Part shown: positions 7,011 to 48,732 of the stretch, piece by piece
How the letters are laid out: each line of letters starts with the position of its first letter
Numbering within the stretch: position 1 is the first letter of the stretch
Assembly (NCBI GenBank): GCA_021814615.1
Contig: JAKAHZ010000002.1
Span: 17,011-81,010, forward strand
Source of the DNA: Nitrospirota bacterium
Lineage (GTDB): Bacteria; Nitrospirota; UBA9217
Reading direction: 5' to 3'
DNA: 64,000 bases
Translations under genes and position numbers: made by a program
Notes under the pieces: model-generated
What the model was told of the DNA's origin: nothing
The model's database searches: none
The model's input: the letters and a program-made list of their open reading frames with translations, nothing else

Positions 7011-7034
7011 GCATACGATGGGCTGCTTCGGTTT

Positions 7035-8133: not shown

Positions 8134-8279
8134 CGGTGATATAGTAGCGCGGCCGGCAGCGCGCGGCAAGTAATTTCTCCCGCCCCGCCGTTTTCCGCGG
8201 CTGCGTGAATCCCTTCGGTTTTTCGGGCTGTCCGTCCCGATCCGCGATCTTCCCGGATTCTGCTGCCCGCGATTCACTC

Positions 8280-8311
8280 TTGCCTGACGTTATTCCCTGT
8301 GATATATTACG
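8280..8311 (+). promoter_or_regulatory. Promoter overlapped by a ModE-box-like inverted repeat
   Basis: TTGCCT-17-TATATT; overlapping CGTTAT-N9-TATATTACG resembles ModE operators. Confidence 0.5.
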
Positions 8312-8315
8312 ACTC

Positions 8316-8690: not shown

Positions 8691-8710
8691 GCATGCTCAG
8701 GAGGACCACC

Positions 8711-27781: not shown

Positions 27782-28147
27782 CTACGCCAGGAAGCGCCGC
27801 ACCACATCGAGGATCTGCTCGGCGGAAAAGGGCTTCACGATCCAGCCGCTCGCTCCGGCTGCGCGGCCTTCCCGCTTCTTCGCGTCCTGCACTTCCGTGG
27901 TCAGCATGATAATGGGAGTGAATTTGTAGTCCGTCATGCCCCGGAGCATGCGGATGAACTCGATGCCGTCCGTCTCGGGCATGTTGAGATCGGTAATGAC
28001 GAGGTCGAATTTGCGGCTGGAGAGAAGCGACAACGCCTCTTTCGGGCCCGATGCCGTAACCACATCGTACCCCGAGCCCTTGACAGCCAGGGTTACGAGC
28101 TGCCGGATCGCGGCGGAATCGTCAACAACCAGGAACGCCTTATCCAT
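27782..28147 (-). CDS. cheY: Chemotaxis response regulator
   Basis: LVVDDS, ITDLNMP, MLTTE and WIVKPF; start MDKAF (upstream extension spurious). Confidence 0.92.
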   Translation of the reverse strand: MDKAFLVVDDSAAIRQLVTLAVKGSGYDVVTASGPKEALSLLSSRKFDLVITDLNMPETDGIEFIRMLRGMTDYKFTPIIMLTTEVQDAKKREGRAAGASGWIVKPFSAEQILDVVRRFLA

Positions 28148-28521
28148 GCATCTTATCCTTCCTGCCGAGAGATTCGGCAACCGCTTCCTGCGTGCATCTG
28201 CTGCCTGCCGGCAACGGACCGATGGCCGGCCGGCGTGAGGGTTCCTGCCGCGAATGGTCCTGCCCGATGGGCGCTCAGAAAGATCGGGGATTGTACTACC
28301 TTCGACCGGGTTGACTGCGTACCTCAGCGCGCGCGTAGGATCTTCAGGGACTGTGACTCCTATTATAGCGAACAATTGCAGAGGCGCTATGCTTTTTTTC
28401 CATCCTGTCGGGAAAGCTGGGGAACCGTGATTTTTGAATAACAAGAGGTTACGCGGGGGAAACGGACGGTTGTCGCGGAAGGGAACAGCTGGTCCTTGGG
28501 GGGCGCGGCGAACTCCCCGTC

Positions 28522-29319
28522 TTACGCGGGAAGTTCGCCCATCGGCACGAACAGAACGGGCCACCGGAGCCGTTCCGGCTCATCCTGAAGCATTGCCGAA
28601 GCTTTTGCCAGCTCCGACGGCGTTGCGCTTCCTGTGGGCAGAAGAACGAGCGACACCGTTTCGTCGGCGGCGGCACGCAGGATCTCTTCATCGGGATATC
28701 CGGCTCGCTGCAGCGTTTTCGCTTCGATGCCCCGGGCTCGGAGCGTCTTTTGCAGAGCAAGAACGGCGTCGGTAATCCGCTCCTGCACGCGGCCGAGCTC
28801 TTCGCGCTCGGCGGGGCTGTAGAGATGAACGGGAACGATCCCGAGCACGAGCACCGTTGATCCCGTTGCCTTGGCTTCCTGCTCGATCAGATCGATTTCC
28901 GCGGCAGGCGTTCCTGCGCTGTCCACAGGCGCCAGGATCGTGCCGGGGATCACCGCGACCGGCCGGTCGGACATGCGCGACACTGCTTTGTACTGGGGAG
29001 TGACCAGCACGAGATCCGGTTTGAGCGTTGCCGACTGGCCGAGAATGGCGGAAAGGGGATCGCCCTCTGCTGAAAGAAAACGGACCTCGAATCCCCCGGC
29101 CTGCTCGGACACGATACTCCTTGCCTCGGCCTGGAACCGGGAGAACTCGGCCCGGGCCATTTCCTCTGCCCTCGGCCCGGCATCGTAATCGATAAACAGC
29201 GAAGGGTCGAACACCTGCAGGACCGTAATGTCGCCGCCACGGTCCTGCACCTTGCTCATGCCGTAGCGCAAGGCTTTCTTGGCGTGAAGTGTTCCGTCAT
29301 ATGCGATCAAGAGTTTCAT
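28522..29319 (-). CDS. Tandem-domain universal stress protein
   Basis: LLIAYDGT...GDP and a second ILAPVDS...GYPDEEIL domain. Confidence 0.85.
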   Translation of the reverse strand: MKLLIAYDGTLHAKKALRYGMSKVQDRGGDITVLQVFDPSLFIDYDAGPRAEEMARAEFSRFQAEARSIVSEQAGGFEVRFLSAEGDPLSAILGQSATLKPDLVLVTPQYKAVSRMSDRPVAVIPGTILAPVDSAGTPAAEIDLIEQEAKATGSTVLVLGIVPVHLYSPAEREELGRVQERITDAVLALQKTLRARGIEAKTLQRAGYPDEEILRAAADETVSLVLLPTGSATPSELAKASAMLQDEPERLRWPVLFVPMGELPA

Positions 29320-29375
29320 GGCGCTCTTCCTTTAATATAATATCAATTAATTACCGCAACATCTTCAGACAGCGC

Positions 29376-29392
29376 TGCAGGATATTGTTGCA
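29376..29392. promoter_or_regulatory. NtrC-type enhancer-binding site
   Basis: TGCA-N9-TGCA upstream of a sigma54 promoter; IHF-consensus AATCAATATGTTA at 29428-29440 lies between them. Confidence 0.55.
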
Positions 29393-29444
29393 TCTTATCT
29401 TTTTAAATAAAAGTTAAATAAAAGCGAAATCAATATGTTAGCCA

Positions 29445-29460
29445 TGGCACAGCGCTTGCT
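29445..29460 (+). promoter_or_regulatory. Sigma54 promoter (-24/-12)
   Basis: TGGCAC-AGCGC-TTGCT. Confidence 0.8.
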
Positions 29461-29505
29461 TTACCACTTGTTAGTCATTCATCTCCGGTGCAAGGGAGCG
29501 AACCC

Positions 29506-29724
29506 ATGAACCTGTCGATCAGCATCCTGCATCAGGCAGTCTGCATGTTCGGAATCCTGTTCACGCTGGCTGCCCTTCAGCCCGAGGCTGCTCTTTCGGC
29601 AGCCAGGCCTTTTCTTTCCCTCTGGCTCGCCTTCAAACGGTACCGACAATCGCTTGCCGTCAGATTCAAAAGCAACCGGTCCGAACGTTTCTGGGAGATC
29701 GATATGACCAAGTTCGAACCATGA
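29506..29724 (+). CDS. Small hydrophobic hypothetical protein (72 aa)
   Basis: GGGAG RBS; first ORF after the sigma54 promoter; hydrophobic N-terminal half. Confidence 0.55.
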   Translation: MNLSISILHQAVCMFGILFTLAALQPEAALSAARPFLSLWLAFKRYRQSLAVRFKSNRSERFWEIDMTKFEP

Positions 29725-29909
29725 TGTTTCCGTACATCGTCGATAGAGTTTATACTGATTGCCGCAAGCTTTAAAGGGGCGCGAAAAAATTCGTTCAGAA
29801 TACATCCGATTGCTGACCTTGATCCCGACTTCCTCGCGAGCTTCACTCCTTCGCGGTAAACAGTTTCCTTCTCCGTAAAAAATACCATCATAATGACCAT
29901 GAACCTGCA

Positions 29910-30113
29910 CTAGGACAACTTCGAAACCTCGTAGAGCATGTACAGCAAGAGACTGAAGGGTCCGATGGTCACCACAAGCGATGCGGTGGCGCTCAAGAAC
30001 TTTCGGTACAGGTCCGCTCTTCCCATTGCCCCCGGCATCATCACCGATCCCAGGAACAGCAGCTGCAGCGCAAGCGCAAACCCGGAACTATGAAACAGGT
30101 ACTCTAACTCCAT
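29910..30113 (-). CDS. Small two-TM hypothetical protein (67 aa)
   Basis: GGAGG RBS; two hydrophobic segments; downstream of a USP gene. Confidence 0.6.
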   Translation of the reverse strand: MELEYLFHSSGFALALQLLFLGSVMMPGAMGRADLYRKFLSATASLVVTIGPFSLLLYMLYEVSKLS

Positions 30114-30170
30114 GCCTTCCTCCAAAGGACAGCCCCTCCCGCAGGAAGGGCGTGATGGTCCGTCCGTTCA

Positions 30171-30599
30171 TTACATCGACTTCTTCGATACCGCCAGCGA
30201 GGCTACCTGCATCTTCGCCGTCTCGCTCTCCAGTTCGACGAACTGCCGATAATTGCCGATCACGGAGCGGAACTTCGGCGGGCAGAGCAACACATCGACC
30301 TTCTCGCTCTTCGCGAAATCGATGACCTGCTGTTCGGGGTCGCCTTCGGTGCTGTACAGGCTCGCCGGGACGCCCTTCGCCGCGCCGGCGATGATCGCTT
30401 TCGCTTCATCGATGAACCGGCCCGCCTCGGCGCGCGCCGCGTTCCGCGCGTTCGGCGTTGCGTCATAATCCGCCATTGCCGAGCTGTCGAAGACATGCAG
30501 CGCCACGACCTCGCCGCCCTTTACCCGTGCCTTCTCGATCCCGTACGCCAGCGCTTCCTTTGCCTGCAGCGTTCCGTCGTATGCCACCATGATCTTCAT
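30171..30599 (-). CDS. Universal stress protein (UspA)
   Basis: IMVAYDGT and EGDPEQQVIDFAKSEKVDVL; similar to the N-terminal domain of 28522-29319. Confidence 0.88.
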   Translation of the reverse strand: MKIMVAYDGTLQAKEALAYGIEKARVKGGEVVALHVFDSSAMADYDATPNARNAARAEAGRFIDEAKAIIAGAAKGVPASLYSTEGDPEQQVIDFAKSEKVDVLLCPPKFRSVIGNYRQFVELESETAKMQVASLAVSKKSM

Positions 30600-30651
30600 T
30601 GTCTGCCTCCTTACGAGAGATTGGTTTGTTTGCTTTCTTGACCTCTCTTAT

Positions 30652-30667
30652 AGCAGGAGGCGTGCCA
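30652..30667 (-). promoter_or_regulatory. Sigma54 promoter for the USP gene
   Basis: Minus strand TGGCAC-GCCTC-CTGCT (GG-N10-GC); TGCA-N9-TGCA site at 30732-30748 upstream. Confidence 0.7.
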
Positions 30668-30945
30668 AAAAAGGCAGCTGAAAAAACAAGGGGTTATAGC
30701 GCCGGCGCAGTGAAAAAACTGCGATAGAGCCTGCAAGGATATACTGCAGGATAAGCAAATGTTCTTGACCGGCAAAGCCATTTCCGATATTCTCGCGCTA
30801 TCGGGAGACATTGCCCGGCAGTGCCTTCTTCATCAAGACTCTCCCGCAGCATGCAGAAGAACCCCGGAAATCAAGAGACCGCGAGGTCACTGAACAGAAA
30901 CAGATCAGGAACATATCAGAATCTGCGATCCTGGGGAGGTTCGCC

Positions 30946-31359
30946 ATGAAGAGCTTCACGATCACGAGGATGATTGCAGCGCCAACGGAGAAAGTGTGGT
31001 CAACGGTAAAGGATTTCCATCGTACGCCCGGACCGGGGGTGAAGGTCGAGATGGTGACGGCCGGCAGCGGCCCGGAAGGCGCGGGCGCGGAGCGGACCAT
31101 CACGATCGGAAGCGTCAAGGTGCGTGAGCGGCTCCTGTCCATGGGCCCGGGAACAACGTTCACCTACCGCATCCTCGCCGGTGCGCCGATGAAGGACCAT
31201 AAGGCCACGGCAACATTAGCACCGAACGGGACATCGACCGAGATCCGCTGGGACGTGTCGTTTACGCCGAAGGTCCCGGGGATCGGCTGGATCGTGGCGA
31301 TGGTGACGAAGAAAGCGGTGAACCAGTACCTCGATGCCGTCGAACGGTCGATAAGGTAA
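30946..31359 (+). CDS. SRPBCC/polyketide-cyclase-like protein
   Basis: IAAPTEKVW, GAERTI, RERL and TEIRWDVSF pattern. Confidence 0.82.
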   Translation: MKSFTITRMIAAPTEKVWSTVKDFHRTPGPGVKVEMVTAGSGPEGAGAERTITIGSVKVRERLLSMGPGTTFTYRILAGAPMKDHKATATLAPNGTSTEIRWDVSFTPKVPGIGWIVAMVTKKAVNQYLDAVERSIR

Positions 31360-31538
31360 AAGGTAGACCCGAACGACGTTATCAAATGGACCCTGCTGGG
31401 TCATTCCGGCATGTCCGGAATCTTTCTTCGACATTGCTCTCCACGCCTCACCTTTCACACGGCAACTCTAGCCCTTTACCCCTCACCGTTTCATCCCCCC
31501 CTACCCGAACGGGCAGTGCTCCCGCCCCGTACTGTTCT

Positions 31539-31590
31539 GCAGTTTTTTCTTGCCACTCATAAGGGAAAATAGTATCCTCGCATTTGCAGG
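31539..31590 (+). repeat. 52-bp promoter-containing direct repeat, copy 1 (copy 2 at 32061-32112)
   Basis: Identical GCAGTTTTTTCTTGCCAC...CATTTGCAGG containing TTGCCA-17-TATCCT. Confidence 0.92.
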
Positions 31591-31696
31591 GCGCAGAAAA
31601 GCGCGTAGTCATCGCGCGGGTCACGCAAGGGACGGACGAGAGTGGTGGCGCAGGCGGAAGGTCTCCCTAATTGTCGAATGACATGAAGGAGAAGTA

Positions 31697-32020
31697 ATGG
31701 CTATTACCCGAAAGTTCAGAACAACGATCCTGCAGCGTGCGGAGTCGGATGCGGCATTCCGGCGGCATATGCTGACCGAGGCGGTCAATGAACTGCTTGC
31801 CGGGGATCTCGCCGCAGGCAAGGCCATGCTTCGCGACTATATCAACGCGACCATCACGTTTCAGCAGCTGGCGAAGAAGCTCAAGAAAACGGATAAGAGC
31901 GTTCACCGCATGCTCGGACCGCGCGGCAATCCCCGGGCGGACAATATCCTGGAGATCATCAAGATCCTGCAGGTAAATGAGCGAGTTACACTGCGGGTGG
32001 AAGCGAAGAGGGCGGCATAG
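31697..32020 (+). CDS. Addiction-module antidote-type HTH protein (orphan antitoxin)
   Basis: GKAMLRDYINATITF and SVHRMLGPRGNPRADN motifs; no intact toxin upstream. Confidence 0.85.
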   Translation: MAITRKFRTTILQRAESDAAFRRHMLTEAVNELLAGDLAAGKAMLRDYINATITFQQLAKKLKKTDKSVHRMLGPRGNPRADNILEIIKILQVNERVTLRVEAKRAA

Positions 32021-32056
32021 GAGAAACATAAACATTAAAGACCTGACCCCCGAGCG
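32011..32056 (+). repeat. Cassette-end repeat with GACCTGACCCC (second copy 32472-32512)
   Basis: GGCGGCRTAGGAGAAAYATAAACATTAAAGACC(TGACC)CCCGAGCG after both antitoxin genes. Confidence 0.88.
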
Positions 32057-32060
32057 CTCC

Positions 32061-32112
32061 GCAGTTTTTTCTTGCCACTCATAAGGGAAAATAGTATCCT
32101 CGCATTTGCAGG
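32061..32112 (+). repeat. 52-bp promoter-containing direct repeat, copy 2
   Basis: Identical to 31539-31590. Confidence 0.92.
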
Positions 32113-32199
32113 ACACAGAAAGACGCGAAAAGCGCGCAACAGCTCAGAAGAACACAACCAGAAGATCGGCGGAGAATTGCAGGCTCAAGGAGATTTGAT

Positions 32200-32481
32200 A
32201 TGGCATGGAAGGAAGTAACTGCTGAAGAACTGGCAAAGACCCTGGGAGCGAACGTAGCCGAGGTCCGGGAGAAGCAGAGGCTGGTCAAGGTGATCGTCAA
32301 GACGCGGAAAGAAAAAGACCTGTCACAGGCTGCTCTGGCAAAGAAGCTCGGGATCAGCCAGGCGCGGGTGGCGCAGATCGAGTCCGGCATAGGCACCGCG
32401 AAGGTCACATTCGATGTGCTCTTCAACATGCTTGTCGCCCTGGGGCTGGACTATAAGGTAGTGACGAAGAAGGCGGCGTAG
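32200..32481 (+). CDS. XRE-family HTH protein (HigA-like orphan antitoxin)
   Basis: RKEKDLSQAALAKKLGISQARVAQIESG; preceded by a degenerate toxin-like tail ...RLKEI-stop. Confidence 0.85.
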   Translation: MAWKEVTAEELAKTLGANVAEVREKQRLVKVIVKTRKEKDLSQAALAKKLGISQARVAQIESGIGTAKVTFDVLFNMLVALGLDYKVVTKKAA

Positions 32482-32600
32482 GAGAAATATAAACATTAAA
32501 GACCCCCGAGCGTTGGTGGCGTAGGCGGAAGAAGCGAGTCTGGCGAGACATAAATATTCAATACCTGACCCTCAGGGTCTTTTTGAACAGGGATATAAGA

Positions 32601-34058
32601 ATGAAAGTCCTTTTCTTCTGGATTGATATTGGTTCCGGCCATAAGCCCAGTTTTCATCATGGGATTGCATGGATATCGGGTAGGCTCATTTCCGAAGGAC
32701 ATGAAGTGAAATGCATGAGGGTGACGCAAGTGGATGATTTGAGCCCATACGGCCAGATTGTTGCAGACTTGCGTCCAGATGTCGTGGGCATATCGATAAC
32801 GACCAACCAAAGAAAATATTTGGAAACCGTAGTGGCGGAGGTCAGAAAAAGGCATTCAACGCCCATTGTCGTCGGTGGTGTGCACTGTATCCTGGATCCT
32901 GCAGATGTGATCGCGTGCGATGGGATCGACGGGGTCTGCGTTGGTGAGGGTGATCTGCCGATGTCCGTGTTGATGAGTAAGCTCTCTCGTGCCGAGGGCT
33001 ATAGTGATACTCCTTCTTTTTGGTGGAAGATTAAAGGCCTGCAAGAAAATAAGACGGAGATTGTAAAGAACGCATTAGCTCCTTTCGAGGATGATCTCAA
33101 TTCATTGCCACTTCCGAATTACTCGGTGTTCGACGCGGACGCGCTCTTAAAAGAGCTGGCCGGCTATTTCAATGTGATGGTGAGCCGGGGTTGCCCGTAT
33201 AATTGTAGCTATTGTTGCAATCACGCGATCAGGTCGGCTTATCGACGGCTAAGCGGATACTTCAGGATTCTTACTCCGTCAAATGCCGTCTCTCTTATAA
33301 AGGGCTGCATGGATCGTCATTCCGGGATAAGAGGATTTATCTTTGAGGATGATCTCCTCCTTTGGGACAAAAACTGGTTTCTGGCCTTTGCCGATGAATA
33401 TCGAATGAAAATAGGCCTTCCCTATATCTGTAACGGCCATATAAATTCTGTCGACCAAGACATAGTGAACGCACTTGTAATGTCAGGATGCAGATCTGTT
33501 ATGCTTGGCCTGGAAAGCGGAGATGAAGAACTACGTGCTACGCTCTTGCGACGCCACTACAGTAATGAAAAGGTTATGGCTGTAGCCAACCTATTTCATA
33601 AAAGTGGCATTCAATTTTTTACCTACAATATTTTCGGTTTTCCTTTTGAGACAAAAGAACAGATGGCGCGCACAGTGCAGATCAATACTGCAATCAGACC
33701 TCATTCCGGACAGGCGTTCTTTTTCTATCCTTATCCAGGAACTGATTTATATAATCTCTGCAAAGAGCATAATTTGCTTAATCGTTCCGAAATGGAATCA
33801 GTTTCAGGATATCGCGAAAAGCCAACGATTAGATTAACTAATTGCAGCATCGAAGACTGTATACGTCAACACAACACGCTGCAGCTATACTTCATTTCTC
33901 GCAGATTTGCAAGAGTGTTGAGTCTGGATAGTAAACTGCTGGACAAAACGATCCATTCGTTATTAATGATATATCCCTCCTTCCTTGTGAGGTTGTTCTC
34001 CAAAGAAAATGTTATTAAAAAGGTTCTTCGATGGATCCAATACAGATTCTTGAGATAA
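32601..34058 (+). CDS. Cobalamin-binding radical SAM protein
   Basis: B12-binding region (VGGVH, VGEGD), SRGCPYNCSYC, FEDD, GLESG and PYPGT; AT-richer than flanks. Confidence 0.92.
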   Translation: MKVLFFWIDIGSGHKPSFHHGIAWISGRLISEGHEVKCMRVTQVDDLSPYGQIVADLRPDVVGISITTNQRKYLETVVAEVRKRHSTPIVVGGVHCILDPADVIACDGIDGVCVGEGDLPMSVLMSKLSRAEGYSDTPSFWWKIKGLQENKTEIVKNALAPFEDDLNSLPLPNYSVFDADALLKELAGYFNVMVSRGCPYNCSYCCNHAIRSAYRRLSGYFRILTPSNAVSLIKGCMDRHSGIRGFIFEDDLLLWDKNWFLAFADEYRMKIGLPYICNGHINSVDQDIVNALVMSGCRSVMLGLESGDEELRATLLRRHYSNEKVMAVANLFHKSGIQFFTYNIFGFPFETKEQMARTVQINTAIRPHSGQAFFFYPYPGTDLYNLCKEHNLLNRSEMESVSGYREKPTIRLTNCSIEDCIRQHNTLQLYFISRRFARVLSLDSKLLDKTIHSLLMIYPSFLVRLFSKENVIKKVLRWIQYRFLR

Positions 34059-34076
34059 TCGGCCTTTCAGAGCGAA

Positions 34077-34147
34077 AGGCCTCAGGGTCCTGCGGTTTGA
34101 CATTTTGTCTTACGAGAACCAATAGGTTCCTCACCTTCCCCCCACCC
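34077..34147 (+). repeat. About 70-bp direct repeat (copy 2 at 34480-34554)
   Basis: AGGCCTCAGGGTC(AGGTC)CTGCGGTTTGACATTTTGTCTTACGAGAACCAATAGGTTCCTCACC. Confidence 0.9.
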
Positions 34148-34158
34148 AGGGACGGTCT

Positions 34159-34228
34159 GGGGTCAGGCTTCAGAATTAGTATTTGAGCAGATATTATGAT
34201 GAGAATATGAATATTGAAGTCTGACCCC
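34159..34228. repeat. REP/REPIN-like 70-bp inverted repeat
   Basis: GGGGTCAGGCTTCA...TGAAGTCTGACCCC with an AT-rich interior. Confidence 0.75.
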
Positions 34229-34237
34229 AAACGGACT

Positions 34238-34477
34238 CGGTTCCGCTTTTCTTCGCAGCAACCCCACCGACAGCACCGCTACCCTGGGGGAAGATTCGCG
34301 TCCTGCAGCAGCTTCCTTCCTTCATCAAATACGTGTATAATTTGGAAGGCCTCTATGCCGCTGGATTGCCTGCGGACCCGGAAACCACACGGGCAATTCC
34401 GATCCGGAGCAATGGTCGTGTTCAACGGAGGAATGATCCGGTGAAATCCGAAACAAGCACCTGGTTTACCTTTTATG
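34238..34477 (+). repeat. 240-bp direct repeat of 38794-39033 (promoter plus truncated gene start)
   Basis: Near-identical sequence including TGTATAAT, GGAGGA RBS and the first ~12 codons of the 38997 CDS. Confidence 0.92.
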
Positions 34478-34537
34478 GGAGGCCTCAGGGTCAGGTCCTG
34501 CGGTTTGACATTTTGTCTTACGAGAACCAATAGGTTC

Positions 34538-34704
34538 CTCACCTCCCCCCACCCGGTTCCTCCTTTCTCCTCAGCAGCCCCACCGGCAGCACTGCTATCC
34601 ACAGCATCACCACCCCCAGCATCATCCGCGTTCTCTGCACTCTCGGCGAATAACGTTGCACGGCTTTTGACGTCCTCTGTTTTTCTCTGTGATCTCTGTG
34701 GCAA
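34538..34704 (+). repeat. Dispersed ~160-bp repeat (also 48438-48594; partial copies at 38778 and 34238)
   Basis: CTCACCTCCCC..CCCGG.TCC.CCTTTCTCC.CAGCAGCCCCAC.G.CAGCAC.GCT...CTCTGTG..CTGTGGCAA. Confidence 0.85.
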
Positions 34705-34711
34705 GGATTTC

Positions 34712-34729
34712 CCCCTACCCGTTCGGGTA
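34712..34729. repeat. 18-bp palindrome-containing direct repeat (copy at 35670-35687; variant 31498-31513)
   Basis: CCCCTACCCGTTCGGGTA occurs exactly twice. Confidence 0.8.
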
Positions 34730-35211
34730 ATACCCATCCCACCCGGTATCCAGTACATTACTTCACATCACGAACCCGCGAATTGCGAGCGGGAGATAAT
34801 TCCATGCCTATATCTCTTTTTAGATATGTCGACGTATTTGGTTATCCGGAGTCCGATCCGGCCACGGTTCTGGAGATGTTGTCGCAGTTCGAAGGGGAGA
34901 AACATCATTCATCCCCGCACTATATCTTTCGAAGGCCGTCTACTGAAAAAGGTGATACACGGAAATCCTCGGCAGATTCTGCGGTATCATTCTTCCCAGC
35001 CGACCCTGGAATCTAGCTGCCTTCCTTCCGACGTTTTATCGGCCTGTCTACGCACTATCGATAAGCCATCATTCTTTCTATGTCTGCTCAAATAAAGCAC
35101 AGACGATTAGTTCGTCGTTGCAGAAAGGAGCAAATAAAATGGTCAATCACAAAATATATTGACATTGGGTAATCTCGACCGTAATATCATTGCTGCGACG
35201 CCCAAACAATC

Positions 35212-35628
35212 ATGGCCTCTATTCCTGTAAAACTTCTTCATTCTCCTTGTCAGTCCTTCGAGGCCCGTCTCGCTCCCGAGACCGGATCAGCCTGGGATAT
35301 ATCTCACGCGTCGCTCGCGCTGAACGGTTTGTCCTTCGGTAATCGCCGGTTCGGCTGGCATGGCGCCTGGTCGTCCTGTTCGCGCTACTTCATGATAAAC
35401 GAGTGGCTCAATGTGCACACCGCCAGATGCCCGGACATGCAGCTACTGGTCATCGATGTCCACGAAGGGAAGGAGTCCATTGTCGAAAAGGTCAGCTCTG
35501 GATTCATTGAACCGATGGGCTTCCGAGATGAAGAAATAAAGTACTGCAAAATCGCATCTGGCATTGGCAATCGTTCTGTTCACCATCTCCCTGTAAGCGC
35601 TCTCACCGAATGGCGCGTTGTTCGTTAG
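35212..35628 (+). CDS. Hypothetical protein
   Basis: 138-aa ORF with beta-rich pattern (WSSCSRYF, QLLVIDV); TTGACA-17-TAATAT promoter at 35159-35187. Confidence 0.5.
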   Translation: MASIPVKLLHSPCQSFEARLAPETGSAWDISHASLALNGLSFGNRRFGWHGAWSSCSRYFMINEWLNVHTARCPDMQLLVIDVHEGKESIVEKVSSGFIEPMGFRDEEIKYCKIASGIGNRSVHHLPVSALTEWRVVR

Positions 35629-35810
35629 CATCGAACACGCGCCAATTTCTTTCCCCAGTTCATTTTGCACCCCTACCCGTTCGGGTACAATCGGGGTATT
35701 GACCCTCTAGATCGTTTCTGTTTTAATTGATTTCATCATGAATATGTCAGTCGAGATGCACTTCGTTGCAGCATTTTCGACCACACACAATTCTTGACGA
35801 GGAGGATCCC

Positions 35811-36878
35811 ATGCCCGCGAAGAAGGTTGGTACGGCCGGAGCGAAGCAGCGCCAGCGTCTTGTCAAGAAGCACGGAGTCACGACCAGTGAGAACGACAAC
35901 CTCTCGAAGGGAATGTCGAGCCTCGTCCCGAAGGATTACCGGGATTCCGGTCGTTTCATCGACAGCGTTCAGTGGAACCTTGAGTGGTTCGGCGCGGCCA
36001 AGTCGCGCGAGAAGGACAAGCGGCGGTTCGATCTCGTGGTCGACATCCTGGCCACGCTGAACAGCGACCTCTTCGTACTCCAGGAAGTCGCCGGCCCGTC
36101 CGAGGACGGCCGGTATCCCGGGATCATGGACAGCGTAGCCGAGGAGCTGACCAGACGCGTCGCCGGGGATTACCGCGTCGCCTATACCAATACCGGCGGG
36201 GAGCAGCGCGTGGCCATGATGTGGGACAGCGACTGGCTCCGTTCCAAGAGCGAGGTTGCAGAGCTGTTCGAGAGGGGACACTATGCCGGCAATAAAAAGA
36301 AGGACCCCTTCGCAGGTCGGACCCCGCTCCTGGGCTATTTCTCCCTCCGGATCCCTTCGGGCAAGAAACAGGAGCCTGGCGCCGACCGGTTCGACTTTCA
36401 GAACCTCGGCGTTCACTTGAAGGCAATGGAAGAGGGTGCAGCGCAGCGGCTCGAATCAGCCGGGATCCTCGCGGACTGGCTCAAGAACAAGGCCCCGCTC
36501 ACCGATAACGACGTCATGATCATGGGTGATTGGAACGTCCCGCCGGACGCCGCCTGCTGGAAGCCCTTCCACGACATGGAGAGGGCGGACACCAACGTCC
36601 ACTTCACCGACATCAACGACCAGAGCGACTTCTCCTATCTCTGGCACGCGAACCGCGACCAGAAGTTCGTGTCGCGCATTGATCTGACCGTCATGAGCCT
36701 GTCCTCGGAGACGGAGTATAAGATGGCCGGCAGGGTTGTCCGCTGGAAACCGATCCAGGACGCCATCAAGGAATCGAAGAACATCACGGACAAGAAGGTG
36801 AAGGACGTGATGAAGGAGCTCAAGGACACCATCAGCGATCACATGCCGACGATTAGCAGGTTCTCCATTGCAAAATAA
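35811..36878 (+). CDS. Endonuclease/exonuclease/phosphatase (EEP) family protein
   Basis: QWNLEWF, LQEV, VHLKA, MGDWN, RID and SDHMP motifs; GAGGAGG RBS. Confidence 0.9.
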   Translation: MPAKKVGTAGAKQRQRLVKKHGVTTSENDNLSKGMSSLVPKDYRDSGRFIDSVQWNLEWFGAAKSREKDKRRFDLVVDILATLNSDLFVLQEVAGPSEDGRYPGIMDSVAEELTRRVAGDYRVAYTNTGGEQRVAMMWDSDWLRSKSEVAELFERGHYAGNKKKDPFAGRTPLLGYFSLRIPSGKKQEPGADRFDFQNLGVHLKAMEEGAAQRLESAGILADWLKNKAPLTDNDVMIMGDWNVPPDAACWKPFHDMERADTNVHFTDINDQSDFSYLWHANRDQKFVSRIDLTVMSLSSETEYKMAGRVVRWKPIQDAIKESKNITDKKVKDVMKELKDTISDHMPTISRFSIAK

Positions 36879-36956
36879 CTTATGAGCAGAATCCAATACA
36901 GATCAAAAACAGATGAGGTCTTCGTACGACCTGTCAATGTAGAAGAGGAGATAATT

Positions 36957-37436
36957 ATGCAACAGCAGATTGAACAGATAGAAATTCCAGCAGAAGAAAT
37001 TGAGAAAGAAACCAAAGCAGCAGGGGAATCATCACTCGCTGAAAAGATCGTACAACAGAAATATCGTCAGTATTTGAAAAACAGCCGGATGTACAAAAAG
37101 CTGTATTATTCGACTCGTCTTTTGGCAGCATTATCCGCTGGGCTCTTGCCATTCGTCGTTACGACGAAACCTTCGTTAGCTACTGCCCTATCAATAGTAA
37201 TTGTACTTTGTGCTGTCACTGACACTGTGTTCGATCCAAGAAGCAAATGGAGGCTTTATTCTAAAGCAACAGATCTTCTTGCTGTTGAAATGATTAAGAG
37301 CCGAGGTGAATATGAAAAATATCAAAGGAATCTCGAAATACTGCTGGCCACCGAGGGAAAAGAGTTAGCCGGTTTGAAAGGGTTGGAAGAGATACTGCAA
37401 AGCATGCAGAAGGGGCAAAAAAATCCAACTCCTTAG
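36957..37436 (+). CDS. Two-TM SLATT/DUF4231-like protein
   Basis: Helical N-terminus, two TM helices, then KWRLYSKATDLLAVE; AT-rich; alternative start 36882. Confidence 0.7.
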   Translation: MQQQIEQIEIPAEEIEKETKAAGESSLAEKIVQQKYRQYLKNSRMYKKLYYSTRLLAALSAGLLPFVVTTKPSLATALSIVIVLCAVTDTVFDPRSKWRLYSKATDLLAVEMIKSRGEYEKYQRNLEILLATEGKELAGLKGLEEILQSMQKGQKNPTP

Positions 37437-37561
37437 CCTTGTGGATTGATTGAATTATTCGCTGTGATAGTGAAAATCCGTTCGCTATAAGCCAGGTGGA
37501 GCTTAAACGATCGAGATAGAAATGTCCGCTCTTAGCTTTTCATTTGCATTGAGGGGGAGAC

Positions 37562-38236
37562 ATGCCGCTCAGTAATGGCTACGGTGTCGTGATCGGCACC
37601 ATCGGCAACTACTATCGCGATCCGCCGGACAACTACGGAAAATATTATCACGGCAATGTCTACGTGAACACGCCGGCGGGGGACTATCACTGCGCGATCG
37701 ATGTCGATTCGAAGAAATCCTCGATCGGCGTCGAACGCCGGATCGTGCCCCTGACCAGCAGTCAACTAGCGAACCTCATCATGCTCGGGACCGGCTATCA
37801 TTCCCTGGCGTCGAATTCCATTTCCGGCGCGATCGATTACGTGCGGAGTCCCCTGCTGCCCCAGAGCATCACGCTCAGATGCCCCTACCTCTTCAGGGCG
37901 ATGAGAGCGATCCTGCCCCTAGAGCTGGTCATAAAGTTTCCCTGGAAAAAAGGCACGGACATCGAGGCGCTCGGTGACCTGGAACCTCTGGTCTTTACCA
38001 CGAAGAACAACGGGCTGAAGGCCTACATCTTCGGCGAGCCCTTCACGTCCGGACTCGGCGTTCACAATATCCATCAGAACCAGGGAGACCCGGCGGGAAC
38101 GACGTGGTGGGCGGAGAACGGCATCTGGCAGGACGGGTGCACCATTCTCCAGCAGAGCAGCGATCTCTATATGGCCTTTTTGAACAAGTTCACATCACAA
38201 TCCTATCTGACTGATGATAACGGACATCCCCTATAG
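37562..38236 (+). CDS. DUF2278/YukJ-family protein
   Basis: YGV, GAIDYVR, FGE, GVHNIHQNQG and NGIWQDG motifs. Confidence 0.82.
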   Translation: MPLSNGYGVVIGTIGNYYRDPPDNYGKYYHGNVYVNTPAGDYHCAIDVDSKKSSIGVERRIVPLTSSQLANLIMLGTGYHSLASNSISGAIDYVRSPLLPQSITLRCPYLFRAMRAILPLELVIKFPWKKGTDIEALGDLEPLVFTTKNNGLKAYIFGEPFTSGLGVHNIHQNQGDPAGTTWWAENGIWQDGCTILQQSSDLYMAFLNKFTSQSYLTDDNGHPL

Positions 38237-38244
38237 ACAACGAT

Positions 38245-38616
38245 ATGCTCACGATGAACATACGACGGCTCTCGGCGGCTCTGGTGTTCATGATCTCTGG
38301 CTGCGCAGATCGATCTGACTGGAAGATGCTGTTTCGTTCGAATGACGGGTATATGTTCTTCTTCGCTCTTCTGTCGTATTTTATCGGCGGAATACTGATC
38401 ATCAAACCGCCAAGCCTCTCAAGATGGAAACGTTCGCTGCAACGCATTCTTATTGGAGCATTCATTGCCCTTTTATTCGGAAATCTGATCGCCTGGTTTT
38501 ATGCGCAAGGGACCGACAGGGGCGACACTGCCAGTGACATCCTGGTGGCGTTTTCCTACATGTTTGTTCTGCTCGCGATCATAGTCAACCATGAGTGGTA
38601 TGAAATAAAGAAATAA
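38245..38616 (+). CDS. Hypothetical membrane protein (possible lipoprotein signal)
   Basis: ISGC lipobox-like segment followed by three hydrophobic helices. Confidence 0.55.
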   Translation: MLTMNIRRLSAALVFMISGCADRSDWKMLFRSNDGYMFFFALLSYFIGGILIIKPPSLSRWKRSLQRILIGAFIALLFGNLIAWFYAQGTDRGDTASDILVAFSYMFVLLAIIVNHEWYEIKK

Positions 38617-38996
38617 TGTGTCCGTTCTTGAGCGACCGATGGCGCTGACAGCCGCGGTCCCGCAACGTCTTCCCCAGAGGCTGCCCCCCAGCCTCTGCAA
38701 CTTGGCCCTCTTCCCCGACCATGACCCGGGGAGGAGGGCATTCTTCGCGGGCCAGACACCACCGTTCTGCTCCCCCACTCACCTCCCCGCACCCGGTTCC
38801 GCCTTTCTCCTCAGCAGCCCCACTGACAGCACCGCTATCCTGGGGGAAGATTCGCGTCCTGCAGCAGCTTCCTTCCTTCATCAAATACGTGTATAATTTG
38901 GAAGGCCTCTATGCCGCTGGATTGCCTGCGGACCCGGAAACCACACGGGCAATCCCGATCCGGAGCAATGGTCGTGTTCAACGGAGGAATGATCCG

Positions 38997-39296
38997 GTGA
39001 AATCCGAAACAAGCACCTGGTTTACCTTTTATGTGATCCTGGTGACGTATGCATTCATCTCGAAACTGATGGTGAACGAGATGGCAAAAAAAGTGATGAA
39101 AACAAAACAATGGCCGCCGCCGGACGCTTCTCCCGATCCTTCCCGGAAAGGTTCGGTCCTGGATTCCCTCAGGCAGCCGCTGTTCGGCGAACCTGCGATC
39201 AAGACCGCCAAGCGGTACGTGATCATGGCCGATGTCTTCCTGTGGTGCGTCGCGGGGTCGTTCGTTCTCTATGGGCTCTTCTTCCAGCGGTCCTAA
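38997..39296 (+). CDS. Small two-TM hypothetical protein
   Basis: GTG start after GGAGGA RBS; two hydrophobic helices. Confidence 0.65.
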   Translation: MKSETSTWFTFYVILVTYAFISKLMVNEMAKKVMKTKQWPPPDASPDPSRKGSVLDSLRQPLFGEPAIKTAKRYVIMADVFLWCVAGSFVLYGLFFQRS

Positions 39297-39302
39297 CGTC
39301 CC

Positions 39303-39890
39303 ATGAGCACGCTCATCAGGCCGTTCACGAACGACCGTGCCGAAAACCGCCCGGGCGTCGAGCTGTTCATCTGGCGGGCCGGCGTTCTTTGCGTCCTGCT
39401 TGCCGCCACCGTCGTTCTCTTTGCTTTCCAGCTCGACCGCATGTCCCTTGCCAGGAAGGCTGTCACGGGGTCTTGGTGCCTTCTTCTGCTGCTCCTGCTT
39501 CTGTATCACCTCCATCTTATCTTCCTGTTCAAGAAGCTCTGCATTACCGTCGCGGCCGACAGCCTGACCATTCGATCCTTTCTGGTTCACGAGGAGATAC
39601 CGTTCCGCGACATCCGGGAGCTGAAAAGCCTGGCAAAGGAGAAGCTGGAGATCAGGAAGAAGGGGCTCTTTTCCTATTTCCGGGAGGCGCCGCAGATCGT
39701 CTATCCCGTGGCGCAGATCGGCTCCTGCACCCTGGAGAAGTTCGGCACGGTGAGGTTCTACAGTTTTCTGGACAGTCTCGGGCAGCCCAAAGACCTGCTC
39801 TTGATCAGAACCGGCGAAGACCGTCGGTTTGCTGTATCCCTGATCAACGCCGATGAGCTCAGGGACGCGATCGACCGGTCCAGGGGCTGA
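39303..39890 (+). CDS. Membrane protein with bacterial PH-like domain
   Basis: Two TM helices, then DSLTIR..IPFRDIRE and FAVSLINADEL patterns. Confidence 0.65.
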   Translation: MSTLIRPFTNDRAENRPGVELFIWRAGVLCVLLAATVVLFAFQLDRMSLARKAVTGSWCLLLLLLLLYHLHLIFLFKKLCITVAADSLTIRSFLVHEEIPFRDIRELKSLAKEKLEIRKKGLFSYFREAPQIVYPVAQIGSCTLEKFGTVRFYSFLDSLGQPKDLLLIRTGEDRRFAVSLINADELRDAIDRSRG

Positions 39891-39947
39891 TCCTTTTCAG
39901 CAGGGACGCCCGAGGCGGGAAGGCGTGGAGTACCGGTCCCTGCAGTG

Positions 39948-41375
39948 TCATCCGCGCTCGTCCCCTTCTTCCTCGTTCTTATCGTCTTTCCGGAAAGCAG
40001 CCGAGGCAATGCCGTACTTCCGCATGATGTGCTGGAGCGATTGTCGCTCCATACCGGCGGACTGGGCAGCCAGGGAGACATTGCCCTGGCTCCGCCGGAG
40101 CAGGTTCGAGATATATTCGATGTTGAAGGAGGCGAGCACCTCCCTGCGCGCGTCCCGGTACGCGAGGCCGTCGGTCTCCGGTGCGGCGTTCCGCGCGACG
40201 ACGGGTTCGGCGTTCGCGCGGAAGTCGGACGGGGAGAGCATCTCGCTCTTCGAGAAGATGACGGCCCGCTTTATCTCGTTCTGAAGTTCCCGCGCGTTGC
40301 CCTTCCACTGGCGCGAAACAAGGAACTGGATCGCCTCTTCCGTCAGCCGCTTCCGGTCCAATCCAAGCTCGCTGCAAAAGAGGGAGAGAAAGTGGTAGGC
40401 GATGAGGGGGATGTCCTCCGGGATGTCCCTGAGCGGCGGGGTATTGACCGAAACGACGTTGAGCCGGTAGTAGAGATCGGACCGGAACAGTCCGGCAGCC
40501 ACGTTCCCGGCGAGGTCCCGGTTCGTTGCCGCAATGACCCGCACATCGACCCTCCGCGTGGCCGTATCGCCCAGCGGCTTCAGCTCCCGTTCCTGCAGGA
40601 CCCGCAGCAGCTTCGCCTGCAGGGAGGAGGAGATGTCGCCGATCTCGTCCAGGAGCAGCGTGCCGCCCTGCGCCACCTGAAAAAGACCTTCCCGGTCCGT
40701 CAGGGCCCCCGTGAACGCGCCTTTGCGATACCCGAAGAGCTCGCTTTCCAGGATGGTCTCGGGGATCGCCGGACAGTTGACCGCCACAAAAGGCTTGCCC
40801 GTCCTGCCGCTGAGATTGTGGATCATGCGGGCCGCCAGTTCCTTGCCCGTGCCCGTTTCGCCGGTGATGAGCACGGTAACGTCCGCCCTGGCCACCAGCC
40901 TGATGGTGTCGATGAGCTCCTGCATGCGAGGCGACTCGCCGACGAAAAAGGTTTCCTTCTCCTTCTTTCGGATCCTTCTCTCGAGATCGGTGTTCTTGCG
41001 CCGGAGGTCCTCATGCTCCAGCGCCAGCCGCACCGTGTGCAGCAACCGCTCCTCCTCGAAGGGCTTGGTGATGAAGTCGTAGGCCCCCTCTTTCATGGCC
41101 TCCACCGCCGTTTCGATGGCGCCATACGCCGTCATGATGATCACCGGGACGGGGGCGTCTTGCTTCCTGACCTGCCGCAGGAGCTCCATGCCTCCCATGC
41201 CCGGCATCTTCATATCCACGAGCAGGCAGTTGACGATGTGCTCCCTGAGGACCCGCAGCGCCTCTTCCGCGCTGCCGGCAGCAAGGGTCTCCGCGTGCAG
41301 GGTGCTTCCGATCAGCCGCTCGAGCAGCCGGGTCATGTCCCGGTTGTCGTCAACGATAAGAACCTTCTGCTTCAT
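39948..41375 (-). CDS. Sigma54-dependent response regulator (NtrC family)
   Basis: Receiver domain, GETGTGKE, ESELFG..GAFTGA, FRSDLYYRLNV and Fis-type HTH. Confidence 0.95.
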   Translation of the reverse strand: MKQKVLIVDDNRDMTRLLERLIGSTLHAETLAAGSAEEALRVLREHIVNCLLVDMKMPGMGGMELLRQVRKQDAPVPVIIMTAYGAIETAVEAMKEGAYDFITKPFEEERLLHTVRLALEHEDLRRKNTDLERRIRKKEKETFFVGESPRMQELIDTIRLVARADVTVLITGETGTGKELAARMIHNLSGRTGKPFVAVNCPAIPETILESELFGYRKGAFTGALTDREGLFQVAQGGTLLLDEIGDISSSLQAKLLRVLQERELKPLGDTATRRVDVRVIAATNRDLAGNVAAGLFRSDLYYRLNVVSVNTPPLRDIPEDIPLIAYHFLSLFCSELGLDRKRLTEEAIQFLVSRQWKGNARELQNEIKRAVIFSKSEMLSPSDFRANAEPVVARNAAPETDGLAYRDARREVLASFNIEYISNLLRRSQGNVSLAAQSAGMERQSLQHIMRKYGIASAAFRKDDKNEEEGDERG

Positions 41376-42981
41376 CCTTCTCTCCCGCAAGGGGGAGCCA
41401 CAGCGTGAACGCCGACCCCTTTCCCTTTTCGCTCGCCACCGTAAGCTCTCCCCGGTGCTCCTTCACGATCCCGTAGCTAACCGCCAGCCCCAGCCCGGTT
41501 CCCTCGCCCGGGGGCTTTGTCGTAAAGAAGGGCTCGAAGATCTTGTTCCGGATCTCCTCGGGAATGCCGCAGCCGGTGTCGGAAAAGACGATCCTCGCGC
41601 CCCTTCCTTCCCTGTCCCAGGAGGTCCTGACGGTAAGACGCCCCCCGGGCTGCATGGCCTGAAAGGCGTTCAGCAGGAGATTCGTGAAGATCCGCTTCAG
41701 CTTGTCCTCGTCGGCGGCGACACGGGGCAGGCCGGGGGCGTACTCGCGGGTGACGGCGATCCCCCCGCTGCGGAACGTCTCTTCCAGTGGCACCAGCGCC
41801 GCCTCGACAGCGGCGTTGATGTCGGTGGGGATGAGAGTGGTCGTTGTCTGGCGCGAAAAGTAGAGAAGGTCCTCGACGATCTTCTTGCACAGCCGGGCGT
41901 TCTTGTAAACGATGTCCAGGTCTTCCCTGACCTGCTGCGTCGCGTTGCATTCCTTGCGCAGCATGTTCGTATAGCCGAGGATCAGGCTGAGCGGATTGTT
42001 GATCTCGTGGGCCACGCCAGCGCCGAGCCTGCCGATGGACGCCAGCTTGTCGGCCTGCAGCACGCGCTCCTCCATCGCCATGCGCTCCTCCTCGGAGGTC
42101 TTCAGGTGCGCCATCATGCGATTGAAGGACCCGGCCAGCTCCGACACCTCGTGGTAGTCCGGCGCGTCGAAATGAATGTCCAGGCCCCGGTGCCGGTTCA
42201 CCACGTCCTTGAAGAAGGAGCTCATCCGCTTCATGGGAAGGACCGCCACGCGGTAATGGAAGTAGTTGAGGAGGACGAACAGCATCCCGATGACCGCGAC
42301 TCGGATAAGGAAGAAGGAAAGGGCGGCGTGCCTCAGCTGCCTGAAGGCGCCGCTCACCGGCGCCGCGATCGACTCAAGGCCGACTACCTCGCCCACCTTC
42401 CAGTGACGGCCGTGTACCGTGCCGTAGTGCCGCGTGATGGACTCCGGGGAAGAGGCGGGGTTCCCGTGGCAGAGCAGGCACTCTTCCTCCGCAACGACCG
42501 CCTTCACGTGCAGAAAATAATCCTCGCCGTTCCTCGAGACCAGGCCCTTCCATTGCCGCTCGGAACCCGCTTCGGTGCGGAATCGCCTGATAAAGCCTTC
42601 CTCAAAGGCATCGGCCTTGTTCTTAGGATTCATGGGGTCGAGGGCCACCCGCCGGTAGATGTAGTGGGGAAAGCGCTGCTTGAACCGCTTCATGATCCCC
42701 ATGTTCATGAAGGTGCTGGACATGACCTGCTGAATGAAGACGTTCCCGGGGAGGGCGTGGAATATCTGGGGCCGGAGCTCGTCGCGGGCATAGGCCATGG
42801 TGGCGTCGATATGCCCGAGCACGATGTCCGTCTTCTCGTAGGCTTCATTGATGTACATCTTCTTCTGATATTCGTAGGTGAGAAAGGAGAGGAGGGCGAT
42901 AGCGCACAGAAGGAGAATGCTCAGGCCGATCATGAACTTGACCGAAAGCGTCAAGCCGCCCCGTTTTGGAATGCTGTTCAA
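41350..42981 (-). CDS. Sensor histidine kinase with periplasmic heme-c (DUF3365-like) domain
   Basis: Periplasmic CLLCH, HAMP, HEINNPL, DTGCGI and GTGLGL motifs. Confidence 0.92.
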
Positions 42982-48437: not shown

Positions 48438-48594
48438 CTCACCTCCCCCCGCCCGGCTCCGCCTTTCTCCGCAGCAGCCCCACCGACAGCACCGCTTTAT
48501 CCAAAGCATCACCCCTCAGCATCCTCGGCGCTCTCGGCGGTTAACATTCCGTGTCTTTTGACTTCCTCTGTGTTCTCTGTGCTTTCTGTGGCAA
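48438..48594 (+). repeat. Dispersed ~160-bp repeat (copy of 34538-34704)
   Basis: Colinear similarity; its 3' part recurs at about 48615-48671. Confidence 0.85.
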
Positions 48595-48732
48595 AGCTTC
48601 TCTGGGTTCTCGATGGTTAACATTCCGCGGCCCTTGACTTCCTCTCTATCCTCCGTGATGTCTGTGGCAAACATTTCGGCCTCAACAGCTCGGTTCACCT
48701 ATGCAACCGGATACGGTATAATAAGTACCGTC

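Follow-up and report, generated by a model that had tools for sequence, protein, structure and literature searches.

The window analyzed here comprises 64,000 nucleotides (nt) of the Nitrospirota bacterium GCA_021814615.1 (genome G000, a 3.49-Mb assembly that is 94% complete) and contains a strain-specific island in which short repeat arms stand next to a gene for a B12-binding radical S-adenosylmethionine (radical SAM) protein and two antitoxin-like genes. The island (about 9.2 kb, 30680-39945) is located between a universal-stress-protein (usp) gene (30171-30599, minus strand) and a sigma-54 response regulator gene (39948-41390, minus strand), the family of which was assigned via its homologue in G003, and has a GC content of 0.526 versus approximately 0.62 in the flanks. 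It is absent from the congeners G001 and G002, in which the usp and sigma-54 regulator genes adjoin each other; the matches to window positions 30670 and 40512, separated by 9842 nt here, have a spacing of only 659 nt (G001), 709 nt (G002) and 2579 nt (G003) in the congeners. A preliminary description of the window had interpreted the arms as REP-like (REP, repetitive extragenic palindromic) sequences forming a gene-capture platform. Searches of the 3.49-Mb assembly and of a comparison set of 61 genomes of the same bacterial family lead to a different reading, namely that the arms are very probably terminal inverted repeats (TIRs) of transposable elements of the TIRtron kind, present as gene-less copies in a variable island, with tips that would serve as sites of rearrangement.

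Three plus-strand units reading ...A(A/T)ACCTGACCC represent solo 3′-type ("right") arms. The first of these, D4-1 (32019-32050), begins at the stop codon of antitoxin-like gene 1, has its core GACCTGACCCC at 32040 and is matched with E = 5e-3 by a profile compiled from 80 TIRs, all taken from other genomes. D4-2 (32480-32506) shares 93% identity with D4-1 over 40 nt and is a short form without 5 nt (GACCT), while D4-3 (32544-32580) contains ACCTGACCCT at 32563 and ends 21 nt 5′ of the radical SAM start codon in a terminal palindrome, GACCC-TCA-GGGTC, which together with a T-run forms a terminator-like site; this stretch is matched at 91-96% identity in G003, G010 and G017. The two units reading GGGTCAGGTCCTGCGGTTTGACA, likewise on the plus strand, are solo 5′-type ("left") arms. 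D5 copy 1 (34077-34147, arm 34077-34110), a short form followed by a promoter-like TTGACA stretch, starts 19 nt past the radical SAM stop codon, overlapping the 3′ stem of the terminator-like hairpin of this gene, and is 92% identical, with a 5-nt gap, to D5 copy 2 (34479-34554, arm 34479-34519). The latter is a full form with promoter-like stretch and is matched with E = 1e-3 (34487-34513) by a profile of the genome's own six ends and with E = 6.4e-4 (34479-34519) by the 80-TIR profile. All right and left arms of the preliminary description are thus present at their positions, those at 34159 and 34219-34228 being the two halves of one hairpin with the core GTCTGACCCC, which belongs to a repeat family other than that of the remaining five arms. 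The arrangement around the radical SAM gene was also recovered in Logan contigs from the runs X1-X3, in which the gene connects to the arm on either side without a single difference (X2 covers 32083-34115); the four runs compared all belong to one study, X1 and X2 may be the source of the assembly itself, and five further runs holding at most 0.11 of the sequence words were left out of the contig comparison.

The outermost ~14 nt of most ends form an imperfect palindrome, reading GAACC-TATA-GGGTC at the 5′ side and GACCC-TA(T/A)-(A/G)GGTTC at the 3′ side. The 10-mer CCTCAGGGTC, found at 32570 and 34080, had been described as a direct repeat flanking the radical SAM gene, and it does occur on both sides; a third copy at 34483 had been overlooked. 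The best reading of this sequence is that it represents the palindromic tip of the TIR, since two facing ends with a palindromic tip will show that tip as a direct repeat, which accounts for the copies on either side of the gene as well as for the third one. An interpretation of CCTCAGGGTC as a target-site duplication was rejected on account of the third copy and of its match to the palindromic outer TIR part in relatives.

No Y1 transposase is encoded in the window, as had already been stated, and all five PF01797 (Y1_Tnp) matches of the genome are located on other contigs (C116, C44, C166, C197 and C134), so that a transposase would have to act in trans. A fuzzy search with the arm core yielded inverted pairs about 900 bp apart on C44 and C197 with one gene inside each. 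The genes on C44, C166 and C197 encode intact proteins of 282-290 amino acids (aa) and lie between TAGGGTCA(G/C)GTC...TTGAC on their 5′ side and the inverted ...GAC(C/G)TGACCCTA on their 3′ side; each of the three is therefore bracketed by inverted copies of the same core, which bears out the suspected adjacency of the arms to genes for REP-associated tyrosine transposases (RAYTs). The C116 gene has GGGGTCAGAC-type and GGGGTCAGACATGA-type ends, and the C134 gene a third end type. For the C44 protein, Pfam Y1_Tnp (E = 4e-14) and NCBIfam NF047646, "REP-associated tyrosine transposase" (89.4 bits, cut-off 80), were matched, and by eye its translation shows both an HUH motif (HYH) and the tyrosine of GRY. 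On other contigs, the genome thus contains three cognate elements that are intact, plus one element of a second type, and the window contains none. Each element is about 1 kb in length, with one RAYT-like Y1/HUH single-strand transposase gene and ends of about 30 bp, in which the imperfect palindrome (GAACC-TATA-GGGTC type), AGGTC and an AT-rich stretch follow each other from the outside inwards. Only the 5′ TIR in addition supplies a TTGACA box, which by eye is part of a promoter-like site, TTGACA-N17-TAnnnT; the TAnnnT box, 17 nt further on, immediately precedes the start of the transposase gene. The 3′ end of the element overlaps the last transposase codons. Two arrangements outside the window, the C166 element located between what by eye resemble fragments of an IS200-type transposase and a group II intron maturase (C166:6700-7800) and a pair of same-subtype 5′ ends with a spacing of 150 nt close to the end of contig C149 (80-270), probably represent collapsed or nested copies.

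The same association was observed in relatives. Thirty-nine of the 61 family genomes contain a match (E<=1e-40) to the transposase gene, with up to 17 matches including fragments in G008 and three close copies in the genome studied here. Thirty loci were inspected for their ends; 15 yielded intact open reading frames (ORFs), all 15 with the same ends, and the other 15 gave no full ORF when filtered for the motif. Individual arms of the window resemble such ends directly: 32017-32049 shares 97% identity with G019:C7:10345-10376, where the transposase gene match ends at 10338 (7 nt away), 34487-34510 is 100% identical over 24 nt to G003:C51:47071-47094, where the gene ends at 47066 (4 nt away), and 34480-34511 shares 91% identity with G002:C122:7140-7172, where the gene ends at 7136. 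All these observations support the view that the arms belong with a transposase of the RAYT type, which in the window can only act in trans.

A genome-wide count of the arm motif, proposed earlier as a check, did not reveal any enrichment for the exact 11-mer, which occurs in 3 genome copies versus about 1.8 expected per strand. With the 80-TIR profile, 15 matches at E<1 were obtained in the assembly, three of them within the 2.6-kb region of the arms (Poisson P ~2e-7), an estimate in which the copies are not fully independent because some of them are local paralogues. Thirteen matches remain at E<0.02; eight lie at transposase genes or at the C149 contig end and five are solo, on C142, C23 and C3 and twice in the window, which holds three more arm copies that this profile missed or scored weakly. 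Overall, the TIR copy number of the genome amounts to about 13-15. In the 61 family genomes, the 12-mer AGACCTGACCCT occurs 221 times versus 21 times for its reversed control, with a maximum of 20 per genome, and the full-length TIR pattern GTCAA-N5-WRGACCTGACCCY occurs 75 times versus 0 for the control. A BLAST search of 29000-40000 against the genome yielded nothing beyond the local repeats and C23, and an Rfam search of 28000-41000 with E up to 1 gave no match. The arms are accordingly neither chance motifs nor classical high-copy REPs. The C23 region (5600-9000) is rich in toxin-antitoxin (TA) genes, by eye a VapBC-like pair, a nucleotidyltransferase pair and an AbrB/PIN-like pair, and the modules are separated by TIR copies and TIR remnants, all in the same orientation, at about 7227, 7286, 8153 and 8238.

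RAYT-like genes flanked by long TIRs were named TIRYTs, and the corresponding units TIRtrons, by Di Nocera, De Gregorio and Rocco (2013; PMC3733652), who reported a shared TIR motif, GGGGWSAS, and TIR families of moderate abundance occurring as single, dimeric or grouped copies. Most TIRYTs were later placed in TnpA-Y1 subclass 2.1, with C-terminal helix-turn-helix (HTH) or DnaA_C-like domains and without classical REPs; RAYT group 1 corresponds to this subclass, which takes in 291 of the 292 RAYTs that Bertels et al. assigned to that group (Quentin et al., 2018; PMC6006769). For group 1, flanking 16-mers at about 12 genome-wide copies were reported (Bertels et al., 2017; PMC5581495). TIRYTs and TIRtrons are hence a known kind of element that has barely been studied since its naming in 2013. 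The present elements agree with it in a RAYT-like Y1/HUH gene extended at its C-terminus, where HTH matches are no more than weak, in long TIRs instead of hairpin REPs, in a multi-copy gene and in moderately abundant gene-less TIRs that are single, dimeric or grouped. The sequence GGGGTCAG, which occurs in D4-1, in each arm of the hairpin, at the ends of C116 and on C23, fits GGGGWSAS, which is why the arms are read as TIRs of TIRtrons; unlike the published motif, the cognate cores start with AGGG and not with GGGG. The tip palindrome, the -35 box in the 5′ TIR, the recurrent form shortened by 5 nt and the TIRs at the stop codons of three antitoxin-like families are seen here and do not figure in the published description as summarized above.

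Several better known systems share part of these features. Like the REP/REPIN-RAYT systems (E. coli TnpA-REP, Pseudomonas REPINs), the elements have a transposase of the same superfamily, inverted repeats around its gene, copies dispersed in trans and a hairpin doublet. Classical REPs are palindromes of 20-40 nt that are tagged by GTAG, reach about 100 or more copies and accompany a single-copy, vertically inherited RAYT gene. In contrast, the repeats studied here number in the tens and not in the hundreds, their gene is multi-copy and patchily distributed (39/61 genomes) instead of single-copy, and the repeat unit is a transposon end that by inspection lacks a GTAG tag and is palindromic only over 5 bp at its terminus. 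With IS200/IS605 elements (IS608 TnpA) they share the Y1/HUH chemistry, and by analogy single-strand cut-and-paste at small hairpins would be expected; the ends of IS200/IS605 are, however, not inverted repeats, and their insertion leaves no terminal inverted structure. Integron cassette arrays similarly consist of small genes, often of the TA type, each followed by a site in the same orientation, but the sites here are transposon ends and no such integrase scored above the cut-off in the assembly. Finally, the 70-nt doublet described below, a gene-less pair of inverted ends within existing sequence, resembles miniature inverted-repeat transposable elements (MITEs) but derives from a Y1 and not from a DDE element and is single-copy here.

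The earlier observation that one copy in each of two repeat pairs carries a 5-nt gap proved to be real. When read in TIR orientation, both gaps correspond to the loss of a single repeat unit from the tandem GACCT-GACCC. A search of the 61 genomes with the short pattern GTCAA-N5-WRGACCCY yielded 90 matches, 15 of which (14 outside this genome) share the inner 12-mer with a full-length TIR; since these cover 7 subtypes in 12 genomes, the 5-nt loss is recurrent and precise. A cleavage footprint would be a bolder explanation of it than replication slippage. At several loci of relatives (L050, L052, L060, L061 and L064), the outermost 10-35 nt of TIRtron ends are often present in 2-3 tandem copies, for example GAACCCATAG three times before the 5′ tip or ...GACTTGACCCTTAGGGCAC... 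repeats past the 3′ tip, and G048 shows a tandem 5′-end duplication of 72 nt, which suggests repeated cutting and rejoining at the tips.

The second TIR family is represented in the island by a hairpin at 34159-34228, already described as a complete 70-bp structure. Its inverted arms (29 nt, 79% complementary, with 20 nt between them) and the DNA fold of 34148-34240 (-16.2 kcal/mol, z = -4.16; 0/200 shuffles as stable) bear this out. It is a doublet of second-family TIRs, GGGGTCAG...CTGACCCC, as judged also from the GGGGTCAGAC-type ends of the C116 transposase gene, and is carried by an insertion of about 92 nt (34148-34239) that is missing from three paralogous copies at 34538, 38778 and 48438. 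The position of the doublet inside an insertion relative to three paralogues implies that such gene-less units have moved. The 70-nt doublet is single-copy in this assembly; related arms, TTNAAGTCTGACCCC with at most 2 mismatches, are numerous in certain relatives when compared to the control (27 vs 1 in G024, 24 vs 3 in G059 and 16 vs 0 in G012). A local repeat family, CTCACCTCCCCCCACCCGGTTCCGCCTTTCTCC...CAGCACCGCTATCC, was found at 34222-34284, 34538-34600, 38778-38840 and 48438-48594 on this contig only, and after its last member another repeat, GGTTAACATTCCG...TTGACTTCCTCT...TGTGGCAAA, occurs twice at 48497-48660.

The radical SAM gene (32601-34058, plus strand) encodes 485 aa from its ATG, with matches to Radical_SAM (E = 4.6e-18) and B12-binding (E = 2.5e-12) and no NCBIfam family above its cut-off. 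Its GC content is 0.446, and the best identity of its product is 38% among 28 related loci in a species-representative genome collection and at most 31% in the 61 family genomes, so that a comparison of the contexts of close homologues, also considered, had nothing to draw on. The gene is foreign to this bacterial family. The foreign segment (32580-34076, 1497 nt) consists of the gene with 21 nt upstream and 18 nt downstream and extends between two TIR tips. When oriented according to the intact elements, it is the outer tips of D4-3 and D5 copy 1, and not their inner sides, that face the gene. The gene consequently lies outside both elements, and we infer that it is flanking DNA of two ends and not cargo within a TIR-bounded unit. 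The idea that it was inserted into an older tail-to-tail TIR palindrome (ACCTGACCC-TCA-GGGTC... after removal of 32580-34089) found no support, with such a junction in 0 of the 61 genomes.

Upstream of the radical SAM gene, both antitoxin-like genes are orphans and are preceded by a copy of an 81-nt promoter-like repeat, D3. Copy 1 (31525-31605, plus strand; TTGCCA-17-TATCCT at 31550-31578) lies upstream of gene 1, and copy 2 (32047-32127, plus strand; promoter-like site at 32072-32100) begins at the outer tip of D4-1; the copies are 88% identical, and no match covering the repeat was found in 40 relatives. Gene 1 (31697-32020, plus strand, 107 aa) is 79-83% identical at the DNA level in six relatives, and its protein gives weak HTH matches and no NCBIfam match. 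Its homologues follow a RelE/ParE-family toxin gene (TIGR02683 for the partner in G016; 103.9 bits, cut-off 62.85) that is missing here. The module shared between genomes extends from about 385 nt upstream of the antitoxin start, including its own promoter/operator, to 0-12 nt past the stop; in several relatives the toxin gene is truncated from the 5′ side in a nested manner, starting at -138, -60 and -20, and the copy in the window lacks it entirely. Ten distinct loci were inspected by eye for a same-orientation TIR beginning within about 60 nt of the gene 1 stop; five have a clear one (the window, G010, G016, G019 and G047), three possibly have a degenerate one (G003, G021 and G048) and two have none (G014 and G008). 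Gene 2 (32200-32481, plus strand, 93 aa) is of the XRE type (HTH_3, E = 2.1e-12), with all antitoxin NCBIfam subfamilies below cut-off, and shares 86% DNA identity with a gene on G018:C108 that follows a 110-aa ORF without family match; a TIR is likewise found near its stop in G018 and G024. For a third antitoxin-like gene, taken from G047, homologues are present in 15 other relatives, and in three of these the match extends into a TIR.

Taken as TIRs of TIRtrons, the repeats of the window would comprise five solo ends, three of the 3′ type and two of the 5′ type, besides the 70-nt second-type doublet within an insertion, all in the island of about 9.2 kb. They would be remnants left by elements that have decayed, copies that were moved in trans, or a mixture of the two. 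Their tips abut five block junctions, namely 32050 (D3 copy 2), 32506-32510, 32580 and 34077 (the foreign segment) and 34480, where a 249-nt duplicate of 38788-39036 with 96% identity (34232-34480, plus strand) is cut off exactly at the start of the next TIR. The second copy of this duplicate continues into an ORF that ends at 39296 and whose product by eye resembles a small membrane protein. In the proposed mechanism, TIR tips would be sites of DNA breakage and rejoining, either through insertion beside an existing tip or through deletion starting from one. Breakage at the tips would explain why five of them coincide with junctions of unrelated or duplicated blocks, and likewise the orphan antitoxin genes, the trimming of the foreign segment to a gene with ribosome-binding site and terminator, and the duplicated segments. 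It appears plausible that TIR tips have a role in rearrangement, and they are probably rearrangement-prone. Since the solo 5′ ends keep their promoter-like stretch and the D4-3 tip is terminator-like, such relics may also affect the expression of neighbouring genes.

A number of observations weigh against parts of this interpretation. On its own, D4-3 is weak (E = 0.69 with the 80-TIR profile), the short forms D4-2 and D5 copy 1 are recognisable only as paralogues of the full copies, and for the D4-type TIR no cognate full element was found in the 94%-complete assembly. The cores of the three cognate elements, AGGGTCAG on C44 and C197 (and in the D5 arms) and AGGGTCAC on C166, depart from GGGGWSAS by one and two positions, respectively. 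The C-terminal extension matches HTH_3 (E = 0.0026) as well as HTH_38 and HTH_23 (about 0.008) below the Pfam cut-offs in each case, and a comparison of the C44 protein with solved structures gave no match with E up to 0.01. Regarding the tips, the coincidence with junctions concerns one locus in which some repeats arose from one another by local duplication, the 5-nt loss can result from slippage during replication of the tandem GACCT-GACCC without any enzyme, and the contigs of the four runs contain neither an alternative junction nor a length variant, contigs being prone to drop rare variants.

That the arms form an ordinary REP/REPIN population or a chance motif made of short GC-rich words is very improbable. 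A small palindrome at each TIR tip, a doublet that forms a hairpin and the presence of a RAYT-family protein would all be expected from REPINs, and the suspicion in the preliminary description that a RAYT-type enzyme acts in trans is borne out by genes elsewhere in the genome; the system is nevertheless of the TIRYT/TIRtron kind, with three exact 11-mers and 13 profile matches at E<0.02 in the genome, no more than 20 exact 12-mers in any family genome, a multi-copy transposase gene accompanied by fragments, and no GTAG-tagged hairpin upon inspection, and chance is excluded by the profile matches and by the 12-mer and pattern counts given above. Even less credence can be given to the view that the arms are sites of another recombination system, such as integron attC or Xer/dif-like borders, that merely resemble TIRYT ends. 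Arrays of same-orientation sites do follow small genes, and TA genes are typical cargo of integrons and dif modules, but Y1 transposase genes have ends of identical sequence to these sites, and in the whole 94%-complete assembly the integron integrase model TIGR02249 reached 99.4 bits at best against a cut-off of 265. A Xer/dif-like reading of the AT-rich part plus core was dropped as a poor fit, by eye, to the dif consensus.

Gene capture, the platform originally proposed, is a minority hypothesis that we regard as unlikely. According to it, a TIRYT acting in trans would cut at the tip of any 3′-type TIR, lift units of a gene plus its 3′ TIR and paste them beside other tips, thereby creating integron-like arrays that include the radical SAM and antitoxin genes. 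Arrays of same-orientation TIRs around small genes, as seen in G016, G047, G008, G048 and G024, are consistent with such a process, as are the TIRs near the stop codons of the three antitoxin-like genes, short remnants of antitoxin 3′ ends that travel with a TIR (32514-32565; C23:8205-8250), the trimming of the foreign segment to 1497 nt between two TIR tips, and the recurrence of the 5-nt variant. The radical SAM gene is, however, faced by outer tips and has no TIR of its own in the required orientation, no close homologue offers a context for comparison, and the TA modules carry their own promoter/operator without a TIR boundary upstream. The one direct test likewise went against capture, as the inter-TIR unit of G047 is not shared as a whole; 15 genomes share only its antitoxin-like gene, six of them also an upstream piece of 69-81 nt. 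Neither a tail-to-tail TIR junction (0/61 genomes) nor an excision junction was found, the latter in contigs of four runs, which cannot show rare variants. In a sample of 40 TIR loci taken in list order from the 12-mer and full-length-pattern matches, 14 of 72 TIR cores were located at TIRYT genes. Of 28 candidate ORFs, six were dropped because they overlapped a TIRYT gene on the opposite strand; the 22 cores, among the remaining 58, with an ORF ending beside them comprise one each with PIN, Zeta toxin and MazE, three with ORF6N, three with other families and 13 with none. With TA genes at only 3 of 22, a general link between TA genes and TIRs is weak. A related and similarly doubtful proposal is that TIRYT ends are active recombination sites that both build and erode arrays, so that stretches with a variable 5′ limit and a 3′ TIR at their end would be pasted beside other tips, or DNA adjoining a tip would be deleted, and the 5-nt form would be the footprint of two cleavage positions 5 nt apart on GACCT-GACCC.

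With the arms taken as TIRs of TIRtrons, the locus adds several features to the description of TIRYTs, namely the tip palindrome, a promoter-like site partly within the 5′ TIR, the recurrent 5-nt-short form, TIRs at antitoxin stop codons and tips at rearrangement junctions in a strain-specific island. If the tips are active, this would provide a simple route by which a single-strand transposase reshapes accessory islands and would ascribe a gene-shuffling role to this family of Y1/HUH transposases. If they are inactive, the locus would be an ordinary graveyard of transposon ends and would mainly caution against inferring capture from short REP-like motifs on either side of a foreign gene.

Apart from the genes discussed so far, the island contains a SRPBCC-type gene, EEP-family (endonuclease/exonuclease/phosphatase), DUF4231 and DUF2278 genes and small membrane-protein genes. 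The EEP-family, DUF4231 (GC 0.414) and DUF2278 genes stand side by side at 35766-38236 and may constitute a defence-type module. No TIR is present at the outer borders of the island. At the same usp/regulator site, G003 contains another insert of about 2 kb with a 414-aa ORF on the minus strand (L016, G003:C86:5600-10200, positions 926-2937 therein), which identifies the site as a recurrent insertion spot independent of TIRs. In addition, a palindromic, terminator-like repeat, GTCATTCCGG-N5-CCGGAATC, is situated 3′ of the SRPBCC-type gene (31397-31426) and belongs to a separate REP-like family, with five copies in the genome (at most 4 mismatches) and numerous copies of 93-97% identity in relatives, for instance five listed for G008 and six for G021.

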